A model generated the notes under the pieces. It was given only the letters and a program-made list of their open reading frames with translations, was not told the DNA's origin and ran no database searches. From an uncultured Bacilli bacterium (GTDB taxonomy: Bacteria; Bacillota_I; Bacilli_A; RF39; UBA660), in assembly GCA_947632255.1 (NCBI GenBank), contig CANROL010000001.1, positions 1 through 25,358 on the forward strand: a stretch of DNA of 25,358 nt, read 5' to 3'. Within the stretch, counting starts at the first letter, position 1. Every line of letters starts with the position of its first letter. A program made the translations under genes and the position numbers. This document shows, piece by piece, positions 1 through 17,527 of this stretch.

Positions 1-2
1 AT

Positions 3-74
3 AACACCCGCATACCATCAAGTGAAATTGATAAATTTATAAAAGAACTTGAACATAATTCAGTTAAATGCTAA
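3..74 (+). CDS. 3' end of a gene entering from the left (NTRIPSSEIDKFIKELEHNSVKC*), possibly a small HTH/excisionase-like protein
   Basis: Open frame 3 from the window edge to TAA at 72-74, followed by hairpins and converging on the minus-strand operon. Only 23 codons are visible. Confidence 0.35.
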   Translation, partial: NTRIPSSEIDKFIKELEHNSVKC

Positions 75-99
75 AAATAAAGCACTGATTAGCATTTTT

Positions 100-129
100 A
101 AAAGCAACGCCCTTTATGTGCTTGCTTTT
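100..129. terminator. Probable bidirectional intrinsic terminator
   Basis: AAAAGCAA(100-107)...TTGCTTTT(122-129) with A/T tracts on both sides, between convergent ORFs. A second inverted repeat AAATGCTAA/TTAGCATTT lies at 66-97. Confidence 0.6.
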
Positions 130-168
130 TTAATATATTATTTCTTAATTATGCTTTTAGTTTAATGT

Positions 169-891
169 TTACTTATTTTCATTATATTTTATCCATTCAC
201 TATATATTTCATTAAAATTATCAATTTTTTCAATACCAATTTTTAAAACATCTTTTATATTTACATTTGGGCAAATTTTAATATAATCAAAAATCTTATC
301 ATATTTATTTGACTTATTGCTCATTATCAAAGAATATATAGCATACAAACAAGCTTTATTTAAATCAATTCCTAAATTATTTTTGGCCATATCAAAATCA
401 ACTTCAAAAGTATCATAAATTTCATCTGAATTATCATAATCTGGATTTCCAACTTCTTCGCAAGTATAATTAGTATTAATTATTGATTCAAATAATGTAA
501 TAACTCTACCGTATTCTCTATATAAAACCAATTTTTTTATTAATTCATAAGTATCAGCAAATACTTCTTCTAATTCATGAGTGGGGTAATATACATAATC
601 AATATCAGCATCATAATAGCTATAAGTACCAGTTTCATAAGAATAGCCCTTAAAGCATATTTCCCCATTTTCTATTTCTTCATATTTTGTCAATATTTCA
701 TTATATTTTTTTAAAATATCTTCATCTATATTATTTTGCTCACCTTTAAAATTTTTGATTTTACAAATTATATATTCATAATAATCTGAGGGTAATTTAT
801 CTATTAATCCGTTTATTAAATCTATAACTTCATGAGCGGATAAAGTTTTTAATTCTTTATTTAATTCCATTTTAAAATTTTCTATATTCAT
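169..891 (-). CDS. Hypothetical acidic protein, last gene of the accessory operon
   Basis: 240-aa ORF, co-oriented with the operon, no recognisable catalytic motif. Confidence 0.75.
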   Translation of the reverse strand: MNIENFKMELNKELKTLSAHEVIDLINGLIDKLPSDYYEYIICKIKNFKGEQNNIDEDILKKYNEILTKYEEIENGEICFKGYSYETGTYSYYDADIDYVYYPTHELEEVFADTYELIKKLVLYREYGRVITLFESIINTNYTCEEVGNPDYDNSDEIYDTFEVDFDMAKNNLGIDLNKACLYAIYSLIMSNKSNKYDKIFDYIKICPNVNIKDVLKIGIEKIDNFNEIYSEWIKYNENK

Positions 892-913
892 GTTTTAAAC
901 TTCCAAGATTTAT

Positions 914-1342
914 CTAAATATATTTTATATTATTATCCTCACACCATTCAATTGCCAACTCTTTATATTTTTCATCTCTAAACTTATACCAATCATCAAT
1001 AATATCATAATTAATACACGTATCTTTAAATCTTCTAAATGCTCCACTTCCATTTATAGCAATATATAACTGATTATAAAGTCTTTCATCCTCAATTGTT
1101 TCAATAAATTCCTCCATCATATTATATTCATCAATATAAAATTTTGTTGGTAAACCAATATATTCATCATATATTTCCTCACATTCATCTTCTGATATAT
1201 CCGTGTATTCATTAATATAAATTATTTCACCATTCTTTGGATTTAAATAAGCTTCAGTATCTTGTCCCATATTAACAAATTCTAAAGCATCAATTATATC
1301 ATTTAATTTTACTTTCATAACTTTATCATTTTTATTAACCAT
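914..1342 (-). CDS. UPF0158 family protein
   Basis: KLNDIIDALE...YLNPKNGEIIY...MEEFIETIEDERLYNQLYIAINGSGAFRRFKD...WYKFRD...AIEWCEDNNI matches the UPF0158 pattern. Confidence 0.85.
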   Translation of the reverse strand: MVNKNDKVMKVKLNDIIDALEFVNMGQDTEAYLNPKNGEIIYINEYTDISEDECEEIYDEYIGLPTKFYIDEYNMMEEFIETIEDERLYNQLYIAINGSGAFRRFKDTCINYDIIDDWYKFRDEKYKELAIEWCEDNNIKYI

Positions 1343-2375
1343 TTTTATTATCCTCTTTCATTAACTCAACAGGCGTCCAGCCATTGTTTACCCATATTCT
1401 TGAATTATTATATATATCAGCGAGAAAATCTAATATTTTTTGAATATTCTCTTGAGTTATACCTACTTCCTGTTCATTAAGCATCTCAAGTAAAGGTTTA
1501 ATATTATCATCACAATATCTATTCATATCCGAGATTAATTTAATAATTTCTTCAATAGTATCTGATGATACCTTTTCTTTCTTTAAATAATTTTTAAACT
1601 TGATCTTAGCTTCAGTTTCTTCATAATAATTATAATCAGAATATTTAAGTAATTCTTCTAATTTAATTGGTTTTCTTTTTATAATTTTCTGTCTTGAAAT
1701 AATGTCTATTATTTCCTTTTTTAAATTTTTATCTCGTAAAACTCCATGAGCAAAATACATTTTATCATTTATTACATATATTTCCATATTATCAATTCTC
1801 TCACCAGAAAATAATGTTTTAGTTGGGGCTTCTAATTCTTTACCATTTCCATAATATAAACTATAGTAATAATTTAATTCACTACATGGTACCAAACCAT
1901 ACAATTCAACCATTGCTCTAATTAAATTATATACCTTTGTATTTTCCTCAACAGTTTTTTCAAATTGTTTTAAATCTATCTTTTTAATTACATTATAAAC
2001 ATCATCAGTCATTGAAATATAAGTTTTATTATTAATTTCAAATATAAAAATTAAACCCGTTGCATACAAGAAATAATATGTATCGGCACTCATATCATCA
2101 TCTTGAATAGTACCTTTATTATTCATTAAATCTTTTAATAAATTAAATTCTTTATCTATAAATCTTTCAATTAAATAGGTTATTATTTCTTCATCAGTAA
2201 GCGCGGTATATATTATTTGAATAAGTTCTTGTTTAGACTTATTACTTAATCTACAAAGATATAGAAGATTTCCTATATATTTTAAATCTTTAACAGTTAA
2301 ACCCTGAAGCAGTTCTATTAAATCTTTTATTATTAAAGAATCAACTGCATTTTCTAAATCAAATTGTTTTATCAT
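1335..2375 (-). CDS. Uncharacterised protein of the type usually ending in a SEC-C motif (absent here), with an N-terminal Rho_N/HeH-like helix pair
   Basis: N-terminal LQGLTVKDLKYIGNLLYLCRLSNKSKQELIQII; VELYGLVP; C-terminal YNNSRIWVNNGWTPVEL. Overlaps its neighbours by 8 and 17 nt. Confidence 0.65.
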   Translation of the reverse strand: MIKQFDLENAVDSLIIKDLIELLQGLTVKDLKYIGNLLYLCRLSNKSKQELIQIIYTALTDEEIITYLIERFIDKEFNLLKDLMNNKGTIQDDDMSADTYYFLYATGLIFIFEINNKTYISMTDDVYNVIKKIDLKQFEKTVEENTKVYNLIRAMVELYGLVPCSELNYYYSLYYGNGKELEAPTKTLFSGERIDNMEIYVINDKMYFAHGVLRDKNLKKEIIDIISRQKIIKRKPIKLEELLKYSDYNYYEETEAKIKFKNYLKKEKVSSDTIEEIIKLISDMNRYCDDNIKPLLEMLNEQEVGITQENIQKILDFLADIYNNSRIWVNNGWTPVELMKEDNKNG

Positions 2376-2736
2376 AGCATATATCTCCTAATAACTTCTT
2401 AATTATTTGTTTTATCTCAGTTGGAATATAATAAGAATAATGATTTCCATTATCATAAATAAAAATCACTAAAGATTCCATTTCTTCCTCATAAGGTGCC
2501 ACCCATTCAGAGTTTTCTTGATTAAGTAATCTTTTAAAATACATTTTAGTAGGTTTATCATCTTTATAAATATCTAACCAAAAATCAAAATCATCTAAAA
2601 TTTCATCTTTTAACTCATTTATATTATCAACACCAAATTCTTCAAGTTTTTCCTTAAGTAGTTCTTCATCCAAAGCCTTTAATGAAGATAATAAATCGAT
2701 ATTTCCTTTTGTTACTAAATACTTTTTAAACTTCAT
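2359..2736 (-). CDS. Hypothetical protein resembling the N-terminal domain of the downstream 346-aa protein
   Basis: 125-aa ORF with AGGAG RBS; VIFIYDNGNHYSYYIPTEIKQIIKKL resembles LIFIFEINNKTYISMTDDVYNVIKKI. Confidence 0.65.
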   Translation of the reverse strand: MKFKKYLVTKGNIDLLSSLKALDEELLKEKLEEFGVDNINELKDEILDDFDFWLDIYKDDKPTKMYFKRLLNQENSEWVAPYEEEMESLVIFIYDNGNHYSYYIPTEIKQIIKKLLGDICYDKTI

Positions 2737-2749
2737 TCATTACTCCTTT

Positions 2750-3346
2750 TTATCTTGCTTCATAACCATTCTTTATTAAAAGAACTAATCCTTTTAAATT
2801 TTTATTATCCGTTTTTAAATTATATTTTCGATAATCATATTTTTTATCAGTATCATATCCTGCTGTAAAATAGCTATTAGAATAGCCTAACTCATCAGTT
2901 TCTAATACTATATCTTTTAATTCTTCACTAGTTATATCATCTAACATTCCTAAGCCTTCACCTTGAGTTATTAAAGGATAATTCTTAGCATCATTAAAAC
3001 TTTGCAATTCTTCACATCCTAAATATGTAATTACAAATGTAGTGGGAGAACCATAGTCATATTCCATTTCCATAGTATCATTTTCTTTTAAATCAAGACT
3101 ACTTAACTTTGTTGTAATGGCACTTACTTTATTTTCATCATATATAGTATCTCTTGGATTTAATCTACAATCATAAATAATATCCTTATAAGCTATATTA
3201 AACATATGATATGCCAAAGAATTAAATGTTGCAAGTATCGTATAAGCAAGATCTGCTACAGTCATTCTATCAGTTATCTCAATTTCCCTCCATATTTTAT
3301 TTTCTAACCCTTCTATTCCTACATTAAATTTTAATACTTTATTCAT
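2750..3346 (-). CDS. pRiA4b ORF-3 / MM3350-like family protein
   Basis: IWREIEI...TVADLAYTILATF...HMF...MEYDYGS...YPLITQGEG motif order. GGAGG RBS; start overlaps the upstream stop by 1 nt. Confidence 0.8.
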   Translation of the reverse strand: MNKVLKFNVGIEGLENKIWREIEITDRMTVADLAYTILATFNSLAYHMFNIAYKDIIYDCRLNPRDTIYDENKVSAITTKLSSLDLKENDTMEMEYDYGSPTTFVITYLGCEELQSFNDAKNYPLITQGEGLGMLDDITSEELKDIVLETDELGYSNSYFTAGYDTDKKYDYRKYNLKTDNKNLKGLVLLIKNGYEAR

Positions 3347-4959
3347 TACTTTACCTCCATCTTATTAGTAATTAAATTAACAAATTTCACTTTATTTTCA
3401 CTATTTAAAACATTCATTATTTCTTCTTTGAAAGCTTTTCTATTACGATATAAAGGATACATCTCCTCAATCATATTATAAATAAATAATGAAGAATCGT
3501 TAATTTCATTCATCTTTTTTATATATTTACATAAACTGCGATATCGTTCTCGATCAGTTGCCCATTTAGCTTTTTCAATTATTCCTAGTTTATAAAAATC
3601 TAATAATTCTTTACTATATTTATCTTTTAATACATTTTGATAATCATAAAGTTTAGCCAAATCAGGATCTTTTTTAATTAAACCAAACAATTTATCGGGC
3701 TCATTTTCTTCTGCATAAATATTTTCTAAAATTCCCCGATTATTAGATTTTATTTTAGAGATTATTTCTTCCTTTAAATTTTTCCATTCAGAAATATTAC
3801 ATAAATTTTTTAATTCTTTATATCTTTTAAAATCATTAGTTTCAATTATTACTTCTGGTAATATTTCTTTCTTTTCTTGAAGCATATTATTTTCATCATA
3901 TACTTCTATTAATTTATCATAAGCCATATCCTTTCTTACATGATTTTTAATATCATCTTTTAGCATTTTTACTATTTCTTGAATTTTATTTTCATCTTTT
4001 AAATATTTAATTAATAAGTCTTTTACACCATAAATATCCACATTTTGATAACATATTTTTATAGCTTCATCTTTATCAATGTAATCATAAACTAATGATA
4101 TTTTATCTAAAGTACAATTAACAAAAATTCCATATGAAAATTGACAATTATCTAAAATTTTTATTACATTTTGTGCAGAATTTTTATCATGAACATAAAG
4201 AATAAAAGCATAAAGAGGAGCATCAGAAAAATCACCTAATTCATTGTTGCTAGCAATAGTATTTGCCCATTTTAAAAATTCTTTATAATATTCATCTTCA
4301 TATAATAATTTACTCGTCGAAGAACATAACATATAAAGCGAATCTTGATACTCACCATTAGATCCATCCATAAAAGTATCTTTTATAAAAAAATATGTAT
4401 GTTTAATCAATTCAAAAGCATTATTAAAGTTCTCTTCATCGATAAATTTTTCTATTTTATATGTAACTCTTGATATTAAATCCACAAAATATCTTCCATT
4501 ATAATAATTTACAAATCCATCTTTATCGCTTATATTTTTTAATTCATACTGCATTTCAGCATAAATTTTATTAAGCTCTGAAGTTGATTTATTTTTTCTT
4601 TTGCTTTTTTGAGCTCCTACTTCTAGCTCTGGAACCTCGTTATCAACTAAATAATATAAAACTGCCGCGATATGCTTACACATAAACTCCCCACCTTCTG
4701 AATAAGGGCAAGAACAATAACAAGCTTGAATTTCACCATTTTTAATTTCTAATTCCACTTTATAAATCTCAGATCCATCAATATAAGCATAGACATTATC
4801 TTTTTGATACCAAATATCACGAATTCTATTTTCATTATAATAACTCTGGCCTCGAGAAAGTATACTATATTCAAAATAATCCTCAAATTCGACATTTTCT
4901 AAAAACTTTTTCATCATATTTTCCTTTTTTAATTCTATATTTATCACACCAGTAAACAT
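3346..4959 (-). CDS. SWIM zinc-finger protein with helical C-terminal region (start may be ATG at 4917)
   Basis: ILSRGQSYY...VYAYIDGSEIYKV...CSCPYSEGGEFMCKHIAAVL (CxC-xn-CxH); C-terminal YRNRKAFKEEI. AAGGA lies before ATG 4917. Confidence 0.85.
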   Translation of the reverse strand: MFTGVINIELKKENMMKKFLENVEFEDYFEYSILSRGQSYYNENRIRDIWYQKDNVYAYIDGSEIYKVELEIKNGEIQACYCSCPYSEGGEFMCKHIAAVLYYLVDNEVPELEVGAQKSKRKNKSTSELNKIYAEMQYELKNISDKDGFVNYYNGRYFVDLISRVTYKIEKFIDEENFNNAFELIKHTYFFIKDTFMDGSNGEYQDSLYMLCSSTSKLLYEDEYYKEFLKWANTIASNNELGDFSDAPLYAFILYVHDKNSAQNVIKILDNCQFSYGIFVNCTLDKISLVYDYIDKDEAIKICYQNVDIYGVKDLLIKYLKDENKIQEIVKMLKDDIKNHVRKDMAYDKLIEVYDENNMLQEKKEILPEVIIETNDFKRYKELKNLCNISEWKNLKEEIISKIKSNNRGILENIYAEENEPDKLFGLIKKDPDLAKLYDYQNVLKDKYSKELLDFYKLGIIEKAKWATDRERYRSLCKYIKKMNEINDSSLFIYNMIEEMYPLYRNRKAFKEEIMNVLNSENKVKFVNLITNKMEVK

Positions 4960-4984
4960 TTTACTTCTTTTTATATTAAAGCTA

Positions 4985-6178
4985 TTAGCTATTCTTTAAA
5001 ATCAACTCCCTTAACTTATCAATTTGTCTATTTAATAAAATACATAATCTGTTAATTCTATTATCACTCATTTTAGTTAAATATTGATACTTATGTAATA
5101 AATCATCAAACCATTCCACAACACCATCTAATTTAGATATATCAATTCTTTTTAAATTTTTTACAACTTTTATTATTTCATCAAAAGGTTTTTCTTCATA
5201 AAATAATCTGCCACTTCCTGAAATATGTACTTCATCTTCATCATAATATTCAATGTTTAAACTTTGACCATTGTCAAATATAGGAGCAACATCAATCCAT
5301 TTTAAAGTGTTAACATCTCTAATAACTCCAAAGTTATTTAAATGTCTATCTTCATTCATAATTAGATAATCTAAAATATACATATTCTCTACTTTTTCAC
5401 GAGCATTCTTTATATTATTTTCTTCTAATTTTTTTATATATTCTTCATAATCTTCAACATTATTATATCTTTTCATATCATTTCTAATCTGATAACAAGT
5501 AATAAATTCTGTATCTTTAGTTATAAAACAAGGACATTTAGATACCACCATATCTTTATATATATCTATTGTATACTCTACATGATCAAATCCTAATCTT
5601 TTACATATTTCACTAGCCAATACTTCATTAAATGGTTGTAATACTTCATTTTTATAACCACCTTTTAATAAATATCTTGTTCCATCTTCAATAATCCAGG
5701 CTTTTTTAAGCATTCCATCAGTTGTATTATTAGGAGTTTTTAAAGATGATTCTTTGGTTATAATTTTACTATTCGTAGATAAAGAAGCTTCCATAAATTC
5801 TGCATAATCAAAGTCATTATCAAAGAAATTAATATCATCGTATGAAATATTACTACCAACTGGCTTTAACCAGTATTGATCTGATAATGATAAGCCAAAA
5901 GCCTTATCTAAAAGTTCGTAGGGAGCAGTTATATTAAGTCTATGAAGTAACAAATCTAATTTATCACGCCATGAAGGAATACCTCTTCCTTTAAACCACT
6001 CACTTAAATTAGTTCTAAAAGGTGTATCATTAATATCATCTTCAATGTAAAAGCTATTTAAAATATAAGGAGCATAATTAATATTTTTAACTTCATAAAT
6101 TCTTGTAAAAACACTAGTTGCAGTATCATATTCTATAGTTAATACTTCAATATTTTTATTCATTAAAATACATTGCAT
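4985..6178 (-). CDS. HipA-like (HipA_C) Ser/Thr kinase
   Basis: TTDGMLKKAW, YLLKGG, NEVLASEIC, NEDRHLNNFG catalytic loop, APIFDNGQSL; N-terminal GLSLSDQYW of the Firmicutes HipA-like subfamily. Confidence 0.85.
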   Translation of the reverse strand: MQCILMNKNIEVLTIEYDTATSVFTRIYEVKNINYAPYILNSFYIEDDINDTPFRTNLSEWFKGRGIPSWRDKLDLLLHRLNITAPYELLDKAFGLSLSDQYWLKPVGSNISYDDINFFDNDFDYAEFMEASLSTNSKIITKESSLKTPNNTTDGMLKKAWIIEDGTRYLLKGGYKNEVLQPFNEVLASEICKRLGFDHVEYTIDIYKDMVVSKCPCFITKDTEFITCYQIRNDMKRYNNVEDYEEYIKKLEENNIKNAREKVENMYILDYLIMNEDRHLNNFGVIRDVNTLKWIDVAPIFDNGQSLNIEYYDEDEVHISGSGRLFYEEKPFDEIIKVVKNLKRIDISKLDGVVEWFDDLLHKYQYLTKMSDNRINRLCILLNRQIDKLRELILKNS

Positions 6179-6207
6179 ATCCTCACCTCATTCGTTTTAT
6201 TGCCATT

Positions 6208-6236
6208 ATTGTACCATGGATACTTTAAAATGTAAA
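6208..6236 (-). promoter_or_regulatory. Sigma-A promoter of the accessory operon
   Basis: TTTACA(6236-6231)-17 nt-TACAAT(6213-6208) with TG extension; GAGGTGAGG RBS before the kinase. A second TGnTATAAT lies at 6254-6262. Confidence 0.65.
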
Positions 6237-6292
6237 TTAATTGATGAATACTCATTATAACAAAACTTTTTATTTATTTAATTTTAAAAGAT

Positions 6293-6601
6293 TTAATTAA
6301 CTACACAATGACTATCCCCACCTCCGGCATTAATGTGGTTAGATACCATTATTACATCATTACCTTTACCATAAAAGCTTTGTGCTTTCTTAGGCCTGTT
6401 AGTGGAATCCAGTGTTACATCACTATCTCTAGTAAGTGAGTTTTCTATACCTAATTCATTTAATCTATCAGCCATATATTTACTTATCATTAAAGTATAA
6501 TCCTTTTCAACAATCCCATTAGCACTTGTACCAGGATCAACTCCTCCATGCCCAGGATCAATAACCACCTTTTTAGTTGCTCTACCATCTACAATATCCA
6601 T
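6293..6601 (-). pseudogene. 5' fragment of an N-acetylmuramoyl-L-alanine amidase (Amidase_3, CwlC-like)
   Basis: VVIDPGHGG, EKDYTL, LTRDSD and SNHINAGGG are present, then SHCVVN*. The C-terminal half with the catalytic Glu is missing. AGGTGA RBS precedes ATG 6601. Confidence 0.85.
6299..6340. repeat. att-like imperfect inverted repeat at the amidase breakpoint
   Basis: AACTACACAATG(6299-6310)-17 nt-CATTAATGTGGTT(6328-6340), centred near 6319 in the Gly-Gly codons. Confidence 0.5.
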
Positions 6602-6616
6602 GTTTATCACCTAATA

Positions 6617-6644
6617 TAAAGTATGTTTAAAAATTATTTATGTT
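6617..6644 (-). promoter_or_regulatory. Possible sigma-K/sigma-E-type promoter for the amidase
   Basis: AACA-15 nt-CATACTTTA matches the CATAnnnTA -10 element. AT-rich context weakens this. Confidence 0.35.
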
Positions 6645-6688
6645 AAAATAATATTTTAAATATAAATTTTTTTTAAATTTTTGCAAAT

Positions 6689-6732
6689 AAAAAGCAACAT
6701 CACCACATATAAAAATTTTTGTAGGATGTTAC
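6689..6732 (-). terminator. Intrinsic terminator after the DUF4352 gene
   Basis: Minus strand GTAACATC...GATGTTGC followed by TTTTT. Confidence 0.55.
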
Positions 6733-6747
6733 CAAATTTTTTTATTT

Positions 6748-7311
6748 CTAATCTAATGTCCATTGAAAAGTATAATCATCATCAAATAAAACGTTTTCAT
6801 AATATCTAACTTTAAGTCCCATATCATTTTGTTTCTGCTCCCAAATAATTACACCTTCAACTTTGCCACCTGCATCAAGTTCCCCACTATTTAATTCAAT
6901 ATCATCTTCAGCGGTAATACTATATACAGAAGCTTCAACACCATCGCCATTAACCATTTGGAAGTCTAAAGCATTATAAGATACTTTTTTATCACTATTA
7001 TTTTCAATTTTAATAGTTACTTTTACATACTCGTACCCATCTTTTGCTTGAAAATACTCATTAGTACCTTTTGTTTTTTCAATTTTAGTAATTGAATATT
7101 TAACATCTTTATAGGTTACAACATCGCTTTGCTTATATTCCTTTTGGAAGTCATCTTTATTACTTCCGCCACCTATAATAGCTCCAATAATGATAACTGC
7201 TAAAACTCCTAATATTACCCATCTAACAAGATGTGATTGTTTCTTTTTGCAATTTGGACATACTTTAGCTTTATTATCAATTTCAGTTTGACAATATTTG
7301 CATTTTTTCAC
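6748..7311 (-). CDS. Membrane-anchored DUF4352 protein with N-terminal zinc ribbon
   Basis: CKYC-x10-CPNC, a hydrophobic helix, then KVTIKIENNS...YNALDF...LNSGELDAGGKVEGVI. GTG start with AGGAGG RBS. Confidence 0.8.
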   Translation of the reverse strand: MKKCKYCQTEIDNKAKVCPNCKKKQSHLVRWVILGVLAVIIIGAIIGGGSNKDDFQKEYKQSDVVTYKDVKYSITKIEKTKGTNEYFQAKDGYEYVKVTIKIENNSDKKVSYNALDFQMVNGDGVEASVYSITAEDDIELNSGELDAGGKVEGVIIWEQKQNDMGLKVRYYENVLFDDDYTFQWTLD

Positions 7312-7354
7312 TATAAATTCCTCCTTTCCTATTTATTATATCATATATCTCAAC

Positions 7355-7390
7355 GAATAGGTGAGAATAATTTCATTGAATAAGTGAGAA
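7355..7390. repeat. Direct repeat pair GAATA(G/A)GTGAGAA, candidate operator
   Basis: 7355-7367 and 7378-7390, 12/13 identical, 23 bp apart, between divergent genes. Confidence 0.5.
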
Positions 7391-7417
7391 AATATATTTA
7401 AGAAAGGTGTTGTCATA

Positions 7418-7672
7418 ATGAATAATAAAAATGATGAAAACTATATTTATTATCTTGTGGCACAAAATCTCAAAAAACAACGAAAATTAAAAGGGTTAAC
7501 CCAAAACGAATTTGCAGAATTATGTAATTATAGTGATGGTTTTATAATGAATATTGAAAGTGAAAAATACCATCAAACCTTTAGTTTAGGTACATTGTGG
7601 AAATTTGCTGAAGTATTAAACATAGATATAAGAGAATTATTTAAACCACTAGATGAAAAAAAAGATAATTAA
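7418..7672 (+). CDS. XRE-family HTH transcriptional regulator
   Basis: NLKKQRKLKGLTQNEFAELCNYSDGFIMNIES...SLGTLWKFAEVLNIDIRELF. Confidence 0.85.
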   Translation: MNNKNDENYIYYLVAQNLKKQRKLKGLTQNEFAELCNYSDGFIMNIESEKYHQTFSLGTLWKFAEVLNIDIRELFKPLDEKKDN

Positions 7673-7754
7673 AATTTTCATCTTATTTAATCTTATAATA
7701 AACTTATTTTCTAATATCTTTTTTTCTTACCGATTTTATTAATATTTAAATCAA

Positions 7755-8751: not shown

Positions 8752-10578
8752 TTATTTAACCAACATATCACAAATTAAATCAGTTATTTCAGTTGGATTA
8801 TCTATTGGCAAACCTTCAATTAATCTAGCTTGAGCATATAAAACTTTCGTATATTTCTTAAGTTCATCTTTATCTTTTTGATATAAATCTTGTAGTTTTT
8901 TAACAATTGGATGTTGAGCATTTATTTCTAATACTTTTTTAGCATTAACCCCATCATTTGTTGGCATAGCATTAATTGTTTTTTCCATCTCAACAGATAT
9001 TTCACCTACAGTAGATAAGCAAACTGGATGATTAGTTAATCTACTTGTAAATTTAACATCTTCAACATCTATTTCTTCTTTCATTAAAGTTAATAAGTCT
9101 TTAGCTTCATCATTTAATTTTTTAAGTTCTTCTTTTTCTTCTTCTGTTTCAGCATCTATATTATCAGAACAAACATTTTTAAATTCTTTATCCTCAAACT
9201 TATTCATTATTTTAAAGACAAATTCATCTAAATAATTAGTACATAATAAGACATCTTTTTCTTTATTAATTAAAGCTTCTACTTGAGGTAACCTTTTAAT
9301 TTGTTCATTTGTTGTACCACATGCATAATATATATCTTTTTCATCTTTATTATTATCTAAATATTCTTTTAAAGTAACTAATTTATCTTCTTTAGAAGAA
9401 TAAAACATTAATAAATCTTGTAACTTTTCTTTATCCATACCATAAGAATTATAAATTCCCGCCTTAATTTGTAAACCAAATGCTTCCCAAAATTTAAGAT
9501 AGTCTTCTCTTCTATCACTTATCATATTAACAAGTTCATTTTTAATATGTTTTTCAATATTGGTAGCAATTGTTTTTAAAACTCTATTTTGTTGTAACAT
9601 CTCTCTGGAAATATTAAGCGATAAATCAGGAGAATCCACAACACCTTTTACAAAACTAAAGTAATCAGGAATTAAATCCGCACACTTTTCCATGATTAAA
9701 ACTCCATTAGAATAAAGTTGTAATCCCTTTTCATAATCTTTAGAATAATAATCATAACTAGCATGAGATGGAATATATAATAAAGAGTTATACTCTAAAG
9801 TACCTTCTGCTTTAGTATGAATATGACTTATAGGTTTATCATAATCAAAGAATTTATCAGCATAAAAAGTATTATATTCCTCTTCAGTTATTTCAGATTT
9901 ATTTCTCTTCCATAATGGCACTAGACTATTAATAGTTTCTAACTTTGTTTCTTTATCATCTTTTACTTCCATTTTAATTGGATAAGTTATATAATCAGAA
10001 TATTTTTTAATTAAATTTCTAATTTCATATTCCTCTAAGAAGCGGTTATATTCTTCTTCATCTTTAATTGTTAAAATAACATCTGTACCATAGTTATCAC
10101 GCGTAGCTTTCTTAATTGTATAACCTTCAATGCCACTTGATACCCAAGTATTTGCTTCTTCATTTTCAAAAGCTTTTGATACTACTTCAACTTTTGATGC
10201 TACCATGAATGCTGAATAAAAACCAACTCCAAATTGTCCTATTATATCAATATCTTCTTTTTTCTTATTTTGTTCTTTAAAATCAAAAGATCCACTTTTG
10301 GCAATCGTTCCTAAATTAGTTTCTAATTCTTCTTTCGTCATTCCTATACCATTATCAGATATAGTTAAAGTTCTTTTTTCTTTATCAACTTTAATGACAA
10401 TTGCAAAATCATCTTTCTTTACTTTTAACTTCTTATCTGTAAGTGACCTATAATGTAATTTATCAATTGCATCCGAAGCATTAGAAATTATTTCTCTTAA
10501 AAATATTTCTTTGTTCGTATAAATTGAATTAATCATTAATTCCATTAATCTTTTAGATTCAGCTTTAAATTCTTTCAT
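8752..10578 (-). CDS. htpG: Hsp90 chaperone HtpG
   Basis: EIFLREIISNASDA, DNGIGMT, NLGTIAKSG, IGQFGVGFYSAFMV, LSLNISREMLQ. Confidence 0.97.
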   Translation of the reverse strand: MKEFKAESKRLMELMINSIYTNKEIFLREIISNASDAIDKLHYRSLTDKKLKVKKDDFAIVIKVDKEKRTLTISDNGIGMTKEELETNLGTIAKSGSFDFKEQNKKKEDIDIIGQFGVGFYSAFMVASKVEVVSKAFENEEANTWVSSGIEGYTIKKATRDNYGTDVILTIKDEEEYNRFLEEYEIRNLIKKYSDYITYPIKMEVKDDKETKLETINSLVPLWKRNKSEITEEEYNTFYADKFFDYDKPISHIHTKAEGTLEYNSLLYIPSHASYDYYSKDYEKGLQLYSNGVLIMEKCADLIPDYFSFVKGVVDSPDLSLNISREMLQQNRVLKTIATNIEKHIKNELVNMISDRREDYLKFWEAFGLQIKAGIYNSYGMDKEKLQDLLMFYSSKEDKLVTLKEYLDNNKDEKDIYYACGTTNEQIKRLPQVEALINKEKDVLLCTNYLDEFVFKIMNKFEDKEFKNVCSDNIDAETEEEKEELKKLNDEAKDLLTLMKEEIDVEDVKFTSRLTNHPVCLSTVGEISVEMEKTINAMPTNDGVNAKKVLEINAQHPIVKKLQDLYQKDKDELKKYTKVLYAQARLIEGLPIDNPTEITDLICDMLVK

Positions 10579-13741: not shown

Positions 13742-14413
13742 TTATTTAATATTATTTACTACTAAATTAACTCCTTCTTTTCTATATATATTATATAAAT
13801 CTAAAATTATAGTTAAATTATGTTTCTTTTTATTTTTTAACTTATCAATATACTTTAGTACCTTTTTATTATCATCTCTAAATAGATACAAACCTGTTTT
13901 AAACCATATTCCTTCAATATTTATAAGTCTTGAAAACATAATTATATTTTGATCTACATTGCTACTTAATGCTATATCAATAATCTTATATGTTTTATTA
14001 GTTATTAAATCTTCTAATTCAACATAACCATCAGAAGATGTACTTACAATTTTAAAAAATGATAAAATAGAGCTATCCATAGCTTTTAAAAAATTGATTT
14101 TATCTTTATTTCGATATTTCTTGTTATCTAAGTATATTTTAGTTAAACAATCAAAATCAGGAAAATTAGGATAAACGCATAATTCGATAAATACTTGAGT
14201 GTCTATAGGATCTCTTAAATCTAAACCAATGTTTAAAGATTTCTTATTATCTATTTCTTCAAGTAAATAACCTACATTTTTATTTAATTCTTTTGTTACA
14301 TCAAAATCACTATTATTAATCATATCATTTAATATTAAATAATGCATATGTCTACATTGGTAATATTTTTTTATATGATCTTTTTGCTTTAAATTTTCAT
14401 TATATTCAAACAT
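13742..14413 (-). CDS. Hypothetical protein
   Basis: 223-aa ORF with GGGAG RBS, between SNF2 and copA. Confidence 0.75.
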   Translation of the reverse strand: MFEYNENLKQKDHIKKYYQCRHMHYLILNDMINNSDFDVTKELNKNVGYLLEEIDNKKSLNIGLDLRDPIDTQVFIELCVYPNFPDFDCLTKIYLDNKKYRNKDKINFLKAMDSSILSFFKIVSTSSDGYVELEDLITNKTYKIIDIALSSNVDQNIIMFSRLINIEGIWFKTGLYLFRDDNKKVLKYIDKLKNKKKHNLTIILDLYNIYRKEGVNLVVNNIK

Positions 14414-14428
14414 ATTTATCTCTCCCTT

Positions 14429-17400
14429 TTAATTATCTAAATCTAATAAATTCTTAATATCTTTTTCGGTTAAAGAAGCAAGTTCAACATCATTAACTTT
14501 ATTTTTTTCTATTAAATCATCACTTAATTTTTGCTTTTTCTTTTGTAATTCTAATATTTTTTCTTCTATTGTTCCTTTAGTTATAAGTTTTATTACTTCA
14601 ACAACTTTAGTTTGGCCAATTCGATGAGCTCTATCAGTTGCCTGATTTTCTACTTGAGGATTCCACCATAAATCTAAGTGAATTACAACATCAGCGCTAG
14701 TTAAATTAAGACCAGTACCACCACTTTTAATAGTTATTAAAAAAGTATTTGTCTTATCATTATTAAATTTATCAACTAATTCTTTACGATTTTTAGCACT
14801 AACACTACCATCAATTGTATAAAAAGTAATACCCGCCTCCATAAACTTTTCTTTAACTATTTCTAATGCCGACTTAAAACTTGTAAAAATAAGTATTTTA
14901 TGATTATTACTAATAATTTCTTTAACTATTTCCACTAAATTTTCTATTTTAGTACTTTCGCCTTCATAGTTATCAAAAATAAGATGAGGGTCAATACATA
15001 ATTGTCTTAATCTAGTTAAAAGAACAATAATTTTTGTCCGTGAAGAATTAAAATCATTAGCGCTTAAAATATTAGCAACTTCATCTCTCACTTCTTCGAC
15101 AACTTTTTTATACAATCTCTTTTGATTTTCACCTAAATCAATATAAATATTATTTTCAACTTTTTCAGGTAATTCTTTTATAACATCACTTTTCTTACGA
15201 CGCATAATAAATGGTGAAGTAACATTTTTTAACTTTTCAATTTTCTCATTATAGCTATCATCACCTTCATGAAAATGATATTTTAAATTAAATTTTGTTA
15301 AATTACCTAAAAATCCTGGCATAATAAAGTCAAAAATACTCCATAATTCGACAATTGAATTTTCAAGTGGTGTTCCCGTTAAAGCATATTTAGTATTAGC
15401 TTTTACATTTTTTACAGCTTTACTAATTAGAGCCATCGGATTTTTTATATTTTGAGCTTCATCAATAAACATAGCTTTAAAGGTTAAGTTATCATATTTT
15501 TCAATATCTTCTCTTAAAGTTCCATAAGAAGTAATAATAACTTGTTCATCAATATTTTCTACTTCTTTAATCCTATTTGAACCATGAATAATTTTATAAG
15601 ATATTTCTTTACCATATAAGTCAAATTCTGTTGCCCAGTTATAAACTAAAGCTGTAGGACAAACAACTAAAAACTTAGCCTTTTTATCTTCTTTAATTAA
15701 TTCTTTCATTAAATAAATTGATTGAATAGTTTTACCAAGACCCATTTCATCTGCGAGAATGCCCCCTAAATCACACTTATAAATTGTATATAACCATTTA
15801 ACTCCTTCTTTTTGATATTCTCTTAATATATTATCTTTAATATCTAATTTTATTTTATTATATTTTTTAAAATTATCAATAAAGTCATCAAATAAATTAT
15901 TAGTCTCTAAATTAGGATACTTTTCCTTTTTTAAATAATCTAAATAAATAGCTTGATATTTTGGAATTATCCCTGAACTATCTTGTTCTTTTAAATTAAT
16001 ATTTAAATCATCTACTAAATCATTTAAAGAATCTAAATCTTCATTATTTAAATCAATTATATTACCATTTTTTAAACGATAATATTTCTTCTTTTTTCTT
16101 AAAGAACTAAGTAATTTATCTAATTCTTTACTATCAACATCTTGAACTTGAAAATCATAATGCATAATATTATCACTACCTATAGCAAAATTACTTTTAA
16201 CTTTAGGCTTTTTAATAATATTTGTATTCTTAACTTTTTCTGAAGTAAATACTTGGTATTTATTAGTTAACTTACCTAAACCTTCATCTAAGAAATCAAC
16301 AATATCATCTATCTCATTTAGAACTATCTTTTTATTATCCACGATAAAATTATAACTTTTTAAATCTTCAATTACCTGATTTTCAAAATCTATATCTCTT
16401 ATAATATCATTAGGTTTTTTAAAATAATCTACTTCGACATTGTTATATAATAATTTAACTTTACAAGTAATGCTATCTTGATTAAAGTCAAAATATAATT
16501 TAACATCTTCAGTATTAAGTAATCCTATCTCTGAAATATTTTCATCAATAATCAAATCTTTTTTAACAATAGATAAAATTCCTTTACTAAAATTATTTAA
16601 TTCATCTTTTGAAAAAACTAACTCTTTTAAATTATTACTATTTAAAGTTTTTAATAAATTAGCTTTATCTTTATCTAAATAATATATTTTATTATTAGCC
16701 ATAACATATTTAAAATTACTTAATAAAGGTGTTATTTGTTGATAATCAAAGTTAAGAACATAGTTATCTTTATCTTTATTTAATTTAACATTAAAAGGTA
16801 AACCATCAATAATTCCTTTGACTAAAGTTCCATTAAAATAAAATTCATGATCATGTAATAATCTAAGTATTGGCACCATTTTATTTTCATAAAATAATAA
16901 AGTGCTATTTTCATAATTATTTAAAATATATTCGATAATCTTTTCATCTTCGGAATTAAAATAATATAAATCAGGATTATAAGTAAAATCTTTACCAAAA
17001 TATACTTCTCGATCTTGATTAACATAAGCCAATTTAAAATTACCAATTTTTTGACCTAAAGAATATAATTTAGAAGTACCTATTTTAATTTTAAGTTCTA
17101 ATGATTTATTATAGTAATAATCAGAAAATTCTAAATCATATCTTACTTTTAATTCTTCTCGAGCATAATTTTTTTTCATTTTAGCCATATCTAGAATTAT
17201 TTTTTTAGATATAGTTTTTATATCGTTTACATTTAATTTAGTTAATTCATCACCATACTTAATTATAACCGCGGGAACATGAGGACATGAATGGATAGTA
17301 CTAAAGTTTCGACAACTACAGCCAAAAGATAATAATTTACCATCTTCAAAAACTAATTTAACATGAGCATCAATATTATTATTATTTTTTATTTCATAAA

Positions 17401-17527
17401 GATATAGTTTTGCATTGTCTTCATCATTTTTTAATTTTAAAGTAATGTCTTTTTTATCTATAAGATAAGCTTCTCTTATATTAAAATCATATATATACCT
17501 TTTTATTATTTCCAATAAAGAATTCAT
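14429..17527 (-). CDS. SNF2/SWI2-family helicase-like ATPase with N-terminal SWIM finger
   Basis: CSCRNFSTIHSCPH; ILADEMGLGKT, IDEAQ, LTGTPLEN, GGTGLNLT, QATDRAHRIGQ. Confidence 0.95.
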   Translation of the reverse strand: MNSLLEIIKRYIYDFNIREAYLIDKKDITLKLKNDEDNAKLYLYEIKNNNNIDAHVKLVFEDGKLLSFGCSCRNFSTIHSCPHVPAVIIKYGDELTKLNVNDIKTISKKIILDMAKMKKNYAREELKVRYDLEFSDYYYNKSLELKIKIGTSKLYSLGQKIGNFKLAYVNQDREVYFGKDFTYNPDLYYFNSEDEKIIEYILNNYENSTLLFYENKMVPILRLLHDHEFYFNGTLVKGIIDGLPFNVKLNKDKDNYVLNFDYQQITPLLSNFKYVMANNKIYYLDKDKANLLKTLNSNNLKELVFSKDELNNFSKGILSIVKKDLIIDENISEIGLLNTEDVKLYFDFNQDSITCKVKLLYNNVEVDYFKKPNDIIRDIDFENQVIEDLKSYNFIVDNKKIVLNEIDDIVDFLDEGLGKLTNKYQVFTSEKVKNTNIIKKPKVKSNFAIGSDNIMHYDFQVQDVDSKELDKLLSSLRKKKKYYRLKNGNIIDLNNEDLDSLNDLVDDLNINLKEQDSSGIIPKYQAIYLDYLKKEKYPNLETNNLFDDFIDNFKKYNKIKLDIKDNILREYQKEGVKWLYTIYKCDLGGILADEMGLGKTIQSIYLMKELIKEDKKAKFLVVCPTALVYNWATEFDLYGKEISYKIIHGSNRIKEVENIDEQVIITSYGTLREDIEKYDNLTFKAMFIDEAQNIKNPMALISKAVKNVKANTKYALTGTPLENSIVELWSIFDFIMPGFLGNLTKFNLKYHFHEGDDSYNEKIEKLKNVTSPFIMRRKKSDVIKELPEKVENNIYIDLGENQKRLYKKVVEEVRDEVANILSANDFNSSRTKIIVLLTRLRQLCIDPHLIFDNYEGESTKIENLVEIVKEIISNNHKILIFTSFKSALEIVKEKFMEAGITFYTIDGSVSAKNRKELVDKFNNDKTNTFLITIKSGGTGLNLTSADVVIHLDLWWNPQVENQATDRAHRIGQTKVVEVIKLITKGTIEEKILELQKKKQKLSDDLIEKNKVNDVELASLTEKDIKNLLDLDN

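Follow-up and report, generated by a model that had tools for sequence, protein, structure and literature searches.

The 25,358-nt stretch of DNA analysed here (hereafter the window; forward strand of contig CANROL010000001.1, GenBank assembly GCA_947632255.1) comes from an uncultured Bacilli bacterium and carries, at positions 169-6178, a tightly packed operon that is headed by a HipA/CtkA-like serine/threonine kinase and also encodes SWIM zinc-finger, PRiA4_ORF3 and UPF0158 proteins. The source assembly (G000) is a small and incomplete Bacilli genome from rabbit gut, comprising 1.02 Mb in 131 contigs at 73% completeness. An initial annotation had described seven co-oriented minus-strand genes at this place, and the list of open reading frames (ORFs) agrees with it in orientation and coordinates (Table 1). 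The families that it had assigned by motif (HipA-like kinase, SWIM, pRiA4b ORF3, UPF0158 and an acidic hypothetical protein) also agree with Pfam, in which the acidic protein has no family. By comparison, NCBIfam gave zero matches among all operon proteins, and PHROGs matched the kinase only, with families of unknown function, and no other operon protein.

Table 1. Features of the kinase-led operon and its borders, in window coordinates
Feature	Position	Strand	Evidence or remark
HipA/CtkA-like Ser/Thr kinase, 397 aa	4985-6178	minus	Pfam HipA_C 1.4e-8; PADLOC PDC-M03A 1.2e-20
SWIM zinc-finger protein, longest ORF 537 aa	3346-4959	minus	Pfam SWIM 1.7e-7
PRiA4_ORF3 (MM3350-like) protein, 198 aa	2750-3346	minus	Pfam 2.5e-16
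N-terminal part of ~463-aa gene, 125-aa ORF	2359-2736	minus	no Pfam family
C-terminal part of ~463-aa gene, 346-aa ORF	1335-2375	minus	no Pfam family
UPF0158 protein, 142-aa ORF	914-1342	minus	Pfam 5.9e-12
Acidic helical protein, 240 aa	169-891	minus	no family match
Putative promoter of kinase cassette	6208-6236	minus	TTTACA-17-TGgTACAAT, extended -10
Amidase_3/LysM N-terminal fragment, 105 aa	6293-6610	minus	Pfam Amidase_3, model positions 1-80 of 174
Left junction of inserted element	6302-6316	minus	GAT + AGTCATTGTGTA, terminal inverted repeat, directly after amidase codons ...NAGGGD
Operon end and 3' end of convergent gene	1-168		weak hairpin ~125-95 on the minus strand; last 24 codons of a plus-strand gene ending ~72

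The number of genes is six rather than seven, because the 125-aa and 346-aa ORFs, previously taken for two related uncharacterised proteins, are the N- and C-terminal halves of one gene of about 463 codons that had been counted twice. A paralogous relationship between them was rejected (BLASTP E 0.077). In a scan of species representatives with the 346-aa ORF, all seven relatives (7/7) carried both parts as a single ORF of 461-477 aa, and the alignment (A1, numbered after the intact relative L034, with one X at the break) is continuous across the window break. At this point the relatives have ...YESKFNLENA; in the window, ...YDK and QFDLENA are encoded in successive frames, separated by a single additional base within an A-run (near 2362-2375). 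An assembly error was rejected as the cause: Logan contigs from two independent studies span the site without a gap, so that the frameshift is real in the population. On the other side of the break, the downstream half has a separate ATG preceded by AGGAG (9 nt upstream), and in the wider 463 family (575 matches) an N-module of ~118 aa and a C-module of ~340 aa are often separate proteins; the split may therefore be tolerated.

An AlphaFold2 (AF2) model of an intact relative of the 463-aa protein has a high predicted local distance difference test score (pLDDT 93.6) and contains a Rho_N-like helix-extension-helix, two winged helices and a C-terminal helical bundle. The first winged helix (residues 148-260) matches TFIIH p52, ORC/Cdc6 and ArsR-type proteins with Z of 5-6, and the second, extended one (residues 256-353) matches TFIIIC tau138 with Z 6.0; these matches hold at the domain level only, the whole model having no significant match in the PDB. 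Among 53 members of the family, a SEC-C motif was found in 10 and Rho_N in 6. The modelled folds of this partner are thus of a DNA-binding type.

With regard to the kinase, its HipA_C domain (residues 155-303) scores 35.1 bits against a Pfam cut-off of 30.5. The catalytic loop EDRHLNN (276-282) and the FDNG motif (301-304) are invariant across 10 homologues and align to Helicobacter pylori CtkA, the closest solved relative (3akj; profile E 2e-12 over residues 182-308), HipT and HipA being weaker matches. A conserved TTDGMLKK (152-159) resembles a Gly-rich/P-loop motif, a resemblance noted without a tool alignment to HipA. The protein search yielded at least 120 homologues at 82-93% identity, and full-length homologues (58-88% identity) are present in 10 of 40 same-genus genomes; since HtpG shows a similar range across the genus (65-84%), the conservation of the kinase is not unusual. 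Its neighbours are wholly different among genomes (recA/rny, methyltransferases, a DUF4143 ATPase, the YhcG nuclease), and the gene moves together with a promoter and a Shine-Dalgarno sequence of its own. Distant homologues (35% identity) are present on a few faecal phage contigs. The kinase is thus a separable, self-contained cassette that is often solo, and it is not an obligate toxin requiring partner proteins, because most sampled genomes have it without any. No HipB (HTH), HipS-like, HipR or HipN antitoxin gene was found within the operon with Pfam and NCBIfam, and neither DUF3037 nor DUF1829 was found by Pfam in any operon protein; the sole HTH_3 gene (7418-7672) lies 1.2 kb upstream of the kinase on the opposite strand.

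Among the other partners, the SWIM domain reaches 31 bits (cut-off 19.6), and its CxCxnCxH finger is intact, with C82, C84, C94 and H96 invariant in 16 relatives (alignment A3). After the finger, the central region matches PPR/TPR-like repeats, which would form an alpha-solenoid body. The PRiA4_ORF3 protein (PF07929; 60.3 bits, cut-off 26.6) matches PDB 2i1s over residues 3-170 with an E of 2e-4, and the UPF0158 protein (PF03682; 46.3 bits, cut-off 21.1) shows a marginal similarity to AFV1 ORF99 (E 0.012). For the acidic protein, which has 24 clusters of relatives, an AF2 model (pLDDT 91.4) predicts a helical fold with a beta-hairpin insert; no PDB match to this model was found, and its matches in AFDB were uncharacterised clusters only. 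Its identity is 65-69% across contexts, and UPF0158 is located directly upstream of it in all three independent contexts. A search for shared domains among the partner families by profile-profile comparison was negative or marginal (the best case being the acidic protein against the SWIM mid-region, E 0.008, probability 5%), and neither Pfam nor the models revealed an enzyme domain in any of the five partner proteins.

The signals around the operon agree only in part with what had been proposed. A single sigma-A promoter had been placed ahead of the kinase, and promoter-like matches in the AT-rich DNA of the window are no commoner than in shuffles (74 vs 74.4); on the other hand, a -35-like box, TGnTAtAATAAT and an AGGTGA Shine-Dalgarno sequence recur ahead of the kinase homologues, regardless of the neighbours, in most of the 15 loci that were compared. 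This cross-locus conservation lends the promoter call real support. The terminator claimed for the 3' end could not be recovered, as a scan found none passing the criteria and only a weak A/T-rich hairpin, beyond which the convergent gene ends. Nor would the intergenic gaps stay within 25 nt: homologue comparison points to later starts for SWIM (Met15/16, ~4917) and UPF0158 (Met9), which would give a largest gap of ~70 nt. Solo kinase copies have hairpins 3' of the gene and so a terminator of their own, whereas operon copies run directly into the next ORF. Overall, the six genes form one accessory transcription unit led by the HipA-like kinase.

Carriage of the operon on a mobile element, which had been suggested previously, is borne out by the gene that it interrupts. 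Next to the kinase promoter, on its upstream side, the 105-aa Amidase_3 ORF represents the N-terminal portion of a gene encoding Amidase_3 and four LysM repeats, and the C-terminal part (GAEIIYALRNS... and the four LysM repeats) is present in the same assembly on another contig (C70:4702-5650). The two halves join exactly between ...NAGGGD and GAEIIY..., and an intact homologue in L033 reads NAGGGEGAEVYY across the break. The 12-mer AGTCAWTGTGTA is located just inside both junctions in inverted orientation (the second copy at C70:5654-5665) and has only 2 occurrences in the 1.02-Mb assembly, compared with 0 for a control pattern. Outside the junctions, beyond these 12-bp inverted repeats, imperfect direct repeats (GCCGGAGGTGGGGAT and GCCAGGTGGTGAT) are found. 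Because the amidase gene is split with inverted repeats at both junctions, the operon is the first (left-hand) cargo of an element inserted site-specifically in the Amidase_3/LysM gene. The unit is accessory: none of 24 same-genus species yielded the SWIM gene, and a full-length kinase homologue was found in a quarter of the genomes (10/40).

A complete 9.2-kb element occupies the same amidase site, with the same inverted repeats, in another genus of the same family (G271; L091:1454-10683). Judged by sequence motifs and without a family search, it encodes a 536-aa large serine recombinase (6065-7675); by the same kind of motif reading, its other cargo comprises a MazG-like ORF, a 631-aa P-loop ATPase, a DinD/Bro-like ORF, a small P-loop kinase-like ORF, and UPF0158 with a 295-aa partner. 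The same right-hand repeat borders a PRiA4 gene in L040, and in L041 PRiA4 adjoins both this repeat and the C-terminal amidase part. The amidase site offers a compact example of one integration site taking different cargo in different genera. Within the source assembly, where contig ends break the element, its recombinase was not located, and the best homologue (40% identity) is on an unlinked contig (C34); no contig-end overlaps linking the contigs of this assembly were found. A search for an empty site through synteny at htpG found none, htpG being present in 9 of 41 genus genomes with nothing beyond it shared. In Bacillus subtilis, skin in sigK and SPbeta in spsM are gene-interrupting elements with large serine recombinases. 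The present element resembles them in the precise point at which the amidase gene is split, in the inverted repeats just inside both junctions, and in the large serine recombinase encoded by the complete relative in L091; in contrast, its cargo is not a prophage. A prophage origin was ruled out for the window, which is the oriC region (dnaA and dnaN at 22-24.6 kb, together with rnpA, yidC and jag), and the phage collection contained neither UPF0158 nor the 463-aa family.

Two smaller observations were made at these repeats. In L041, an inverted pair of the 12-mer (1416-1430 and 2450-2464) stands ~1 kb apart around the lone PRiA4 gene, its left copy lying inside a small ORF, and this repeat-flanked PRiA4 could be a mini-element or a remnant. 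On C70, a tandem repeat of ~4 copies (TCTGCAGAG(A/C)(A/T)T; ~5890-5945, minus strand) is located just beyond the stop codon of the final gene of the element and ~230 nt before the right junction.

Elsewhere, the operon genes recur in shuffled subsets. The kinase is followed by the 463-family gene in L033, L034, L035, L037 and L038, and by this gene and UPF0158 in L036, whereas 463-UPF0158 stands behind AbiEii in L039 and a kinase-UPF0158-acidic protein series was found in L045. In G014, a 463-family gene is located directly upstream of the kinase. UPF0158 and SWIM also occur alone as a pair, in either order (L005-L013). The arrangement nearest to that of the window, on a 3.5-kb contig (L048), is kinase-SWIM-PRiA4-UPF0158-acidic protein, i.e., the window order without the 463-aa gene; the complete six-gene set was not seen at any other locus examined. 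The co-occurrence in other genomes by which the initial annotation had proposed to judge the operon thus holds for sub-modules and fails for the full set. A conserved seven-gene system is not what the genomes contain, given that the kinase is alone in most of those sampled and that the other five families stand together without it in one locus (L050, in the order PRiA4-SWIM-UPF0158-acidic protein-463, with highly divergent SWIM and PRiA4). Therefore, the gene set is modular rather than a fixed system, and the window operon is a composite of a kinase cassette and a five-gene partner unit, the latter lying between the stop codon of the kinase and the transcript end.

Several explanations of this composite have to be weighed. 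The first, and the preferred one, is that the operon is a conflict module, with binding proteins that sense or restrain an effector kinase, in defence or in addiction to the element. It is a tentative reading, with a probability of roughly 0.4. The strongest rival, since kinase and partners each occur alone, is that two or more unrelated units merely share a transcript: a solo kinase cassette and a UPF0158-centred set serving the element itself, for example in the control of excision or transfer, in modulation of the host nucleoid, or in countering host defence. Besides the separate occurrence of the kinase and the partner set, this rival is favoured by the carriage of partners on serine-recombinase elements (L091, and L005 with a recombinase on either side), by the prediction that all partners are binding proteins without an enzyme domain, and by the fusions of UPF0158, which involve GNAT or SWIM and never a kinase. 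Against it, within this lineage 6 of the 7 close relatives of the 463-aa gene and 2 of the 3 independent contexts of the acidic protein are directly behind a kinase, which is far above chance for a single-copy gene. As to a counter-defence role, phage records yielded neither UPF0158 nor the 463-aa family, which argues against such a role in phages and leaves other elements unaffected. On balance, the two-unit explanation is considered somewhat unlikely.

The class-wide distribution of UPF0158 adds to this picture. Of 301 genomes sampled from the whole class, 16 contain it, and 14 of these 16 loci were inspected: SWIM is adjacent in 2 (L084, L093) and fused to UPF0158 in 1 (L086), and a 463-family gene is adjacent in 1. 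Fusions of UPF0158 to a GNAT acetyltransferase are present in three genomes of the class (L081:1318-2202, L087:1540-2457 and L092:7893-8882), which hints that UPF0158 may be an adaptor attachable to different enzymes. On a replicon of Vescimonas (Clostridia), a 463-family gene annotated as a 'SEC-C metal-binding domain protein' is followed by UPF0158 with a 4-nt overlap. Collectively, UPF0158 is the hub of a recurring neighbourhood in Bacilli and Clostridia, usually sited in variable regions beside known defence systems: SWIM proteins adjoin it or are fused to it, and the 463/SEC-C family adjoins it. A broader proposal built on these data is that UPF0158, a zinc-knuckle scaffold (of the SWIM/solenoid or the SEC-C/Rho_N winged-helix type), PRiA4_ORF3 and the acidic protein would form an undescribed non-enzymatic sensing or regulatory complex, mobile in Bacillota, that could be plugged into different effectors, such as the HipA/CtkA-like kinase here and the fused GNAT elsewhere. 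This proposal is regarded as decidedly unlikely; if true, the UPF0158-centred complex would be a new modular conflict system.

The Vescimonas locus also bears on a different possibility, as assorted small genes form a long array there, all in one direction. The five downstream genes of the operon might likewise be an orphan, polyimmunity-like array of immunity or antitoxin-like genes, each neutralising a different toxin, and the shuffling gene order in variable regions, together with the small size or acidity of the non-enzymatic products, would be in keeping with this. Nevertheless, no polymorphic-toxin gene is present in the window or the sampled loci, and the window contains no toxin domain; in the parts of the polymorphic-toxin survey that were available (PMC3482391), none of the operon family names was found. 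Conserved pairings and the natural SWIM-UPF0158 fusion also indicate joint rather than independent action, and an array of this kind is accordingly considered very improbable.

Defence genes are common around the related loci and provide a further context for the conflict reading. Their neighbours include Wadjet jetABCD, Fic, a Type ISP restriction-modification system, a Gabija-like pair, AbiEii, Thoeris, HEPN-MNT and a reverse transcriptase, as well as a C5 methylase, ImmA/IrrE and large serine recombinases. PADLOC gave candidate-level matches only, to PDC-M03A for the kinase (1.2e-20) and to PDC-S62 for the SWIM protein, in line with the earlier remark that no named system has this composition. 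PDC-M03 is a multi-gene candidate, whose PDC-M03A models match the kinase alone, no operon protein matching its second component. PDC-S62 is a single-gene candidate, and its model matches the window SWIM protein at the N-terminus only (7e-11); for the SWIM relative in L050, the match extends over ~400 positions (9e-21). Literature searches returned no paper describing PDC-M03 or PDC-S62, and those on UPF0158/PF03682, PF07929 and pRiA4b found nothing describing these genes together. The UPF0158-centred partner network is thus undescribed in the searchable literature, and the kinase part is a variant of known Hip-type kinases.

Hip kinases have been reported to pair with varied DNA-binding partners, such as those of the HipBA, HipBST, hipRF, hipIN and hipJS types (PMC8262856), and in DS-6/HipAD a HipA-like kinase and a non-HipB partner provide kinase-dependent phage defence (PMC13092281). 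The operon shares with these modules a HipA_C Ser/Thr kinase with a DRHxxN loop and a DxG motif, adjoining non-enzymatic partners with predicted DNA-binding-type folds on mobile or variable DNA. In contrast to them, it has no HipB, HipS, HipR, HipN or DUF3037/DUF1829 partner; the partners are instead SWIM, PRiA4_ORF3, a protein with helix-extension-helix (HeH) and winged helices, UPF0158 and the acidic protein. Furthermore, the operon kinase is frequently solo, and its partners are downstream and vary in number and order. H. pylori CtkA (JHP0940) is likewise encoded in a strain-variable region, yet it is only 325 aa long, lacking the N-terminal region of ~150 residues of the operon kinase, and it has been described as acting on host cells, whereas nothing points to secretion of the operon kinase.

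By analogy with these systems, the module would act in genetic conflict, either in defence against phages or plasmids or in addiction of the host to the element. The kinase would be the effector and might arrest growth by phosphorylating a translation component, as in HipA-family toxins, and the DNA- or protein-binding partners would sense or restrain it, as proposed for HipB, HipR, HipN and DS-6B of HipAD. UPF0158 with a SWIM or SEC-C-family partner might also function as a unit independently of the kinase. Only recently have HipA-family kinases been linked to phage defence with non-HipB partners, and the locus adds a kinase family, common in gut Bacilli, with a new and shuffling set of partners. 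It also provides the first shared context for four long-uncharacterised families or proteins, the UPF0158, PRiA4_ORF3, bacterial SWIM-solenoid and Rho_N/SEC-C proteins of Bacillota, consisting of conserved pairings, one natural fusion, carriage on mobile elements and defence-island neighbours, which makes their function directly testable.

Several points weigh against the conflict module. The kinase is without any partner in most sampled genomes and the partners also occur without it, so that their coupling may reflect only a shared promoter or an insertion hotspot; in addition, composition and order vary, unlike in most fixed multi-protein systems. No recognised defence gene adjoins the operon within the window, the link to defence islands is guilt by association, and the PDC candidate models of PADLOC are unvalidated. 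Middling Z values (5-6) underlie the winged-helix assignments of the 463-aa protein. Finally, because the 463-aa gene is frameshifted here and the genes for SWIM (truncated) and PRiA4 (frameshifted) look damaged in L048, relaxed selection is suggested, and the window copy might be decaying cargo without current function. Such decay is improbable: the remaining five ORFs have stayed intact and show good conservation (kinase 75-93%; UPF0158 74-80% across contexts, even where neighbours differ), and both the start signals of the downstream half of the split gene and the existence of its two modules as separate proteins are consistent with a tolerated split.

The window is very AT-rich (GC 0.19-0.32), and upstream of the operon it also contains rsmB, an SNF2 helicase gene, a P-type ATPase gene and htpG. 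At the other end, the convergent gene runs to the end of the contig, which stops inside the element. The htpG gene (8752-10578) is patchy in the genus (9/41 genomes) and its flanks are not syntenic; therefore, the stretch from the SNF2 gene to the contig end may be variable as a whole. A SWIM finger is often present in the SNF2-type helicase family, and Pfam detected no SWIM domain in the SNF2 helicase of the window. This helicase, which has an SNF2_assoc domain (14429-17527) and is followed by a 223-aa protein without a family (13742-14413), is unrelated to the operon.

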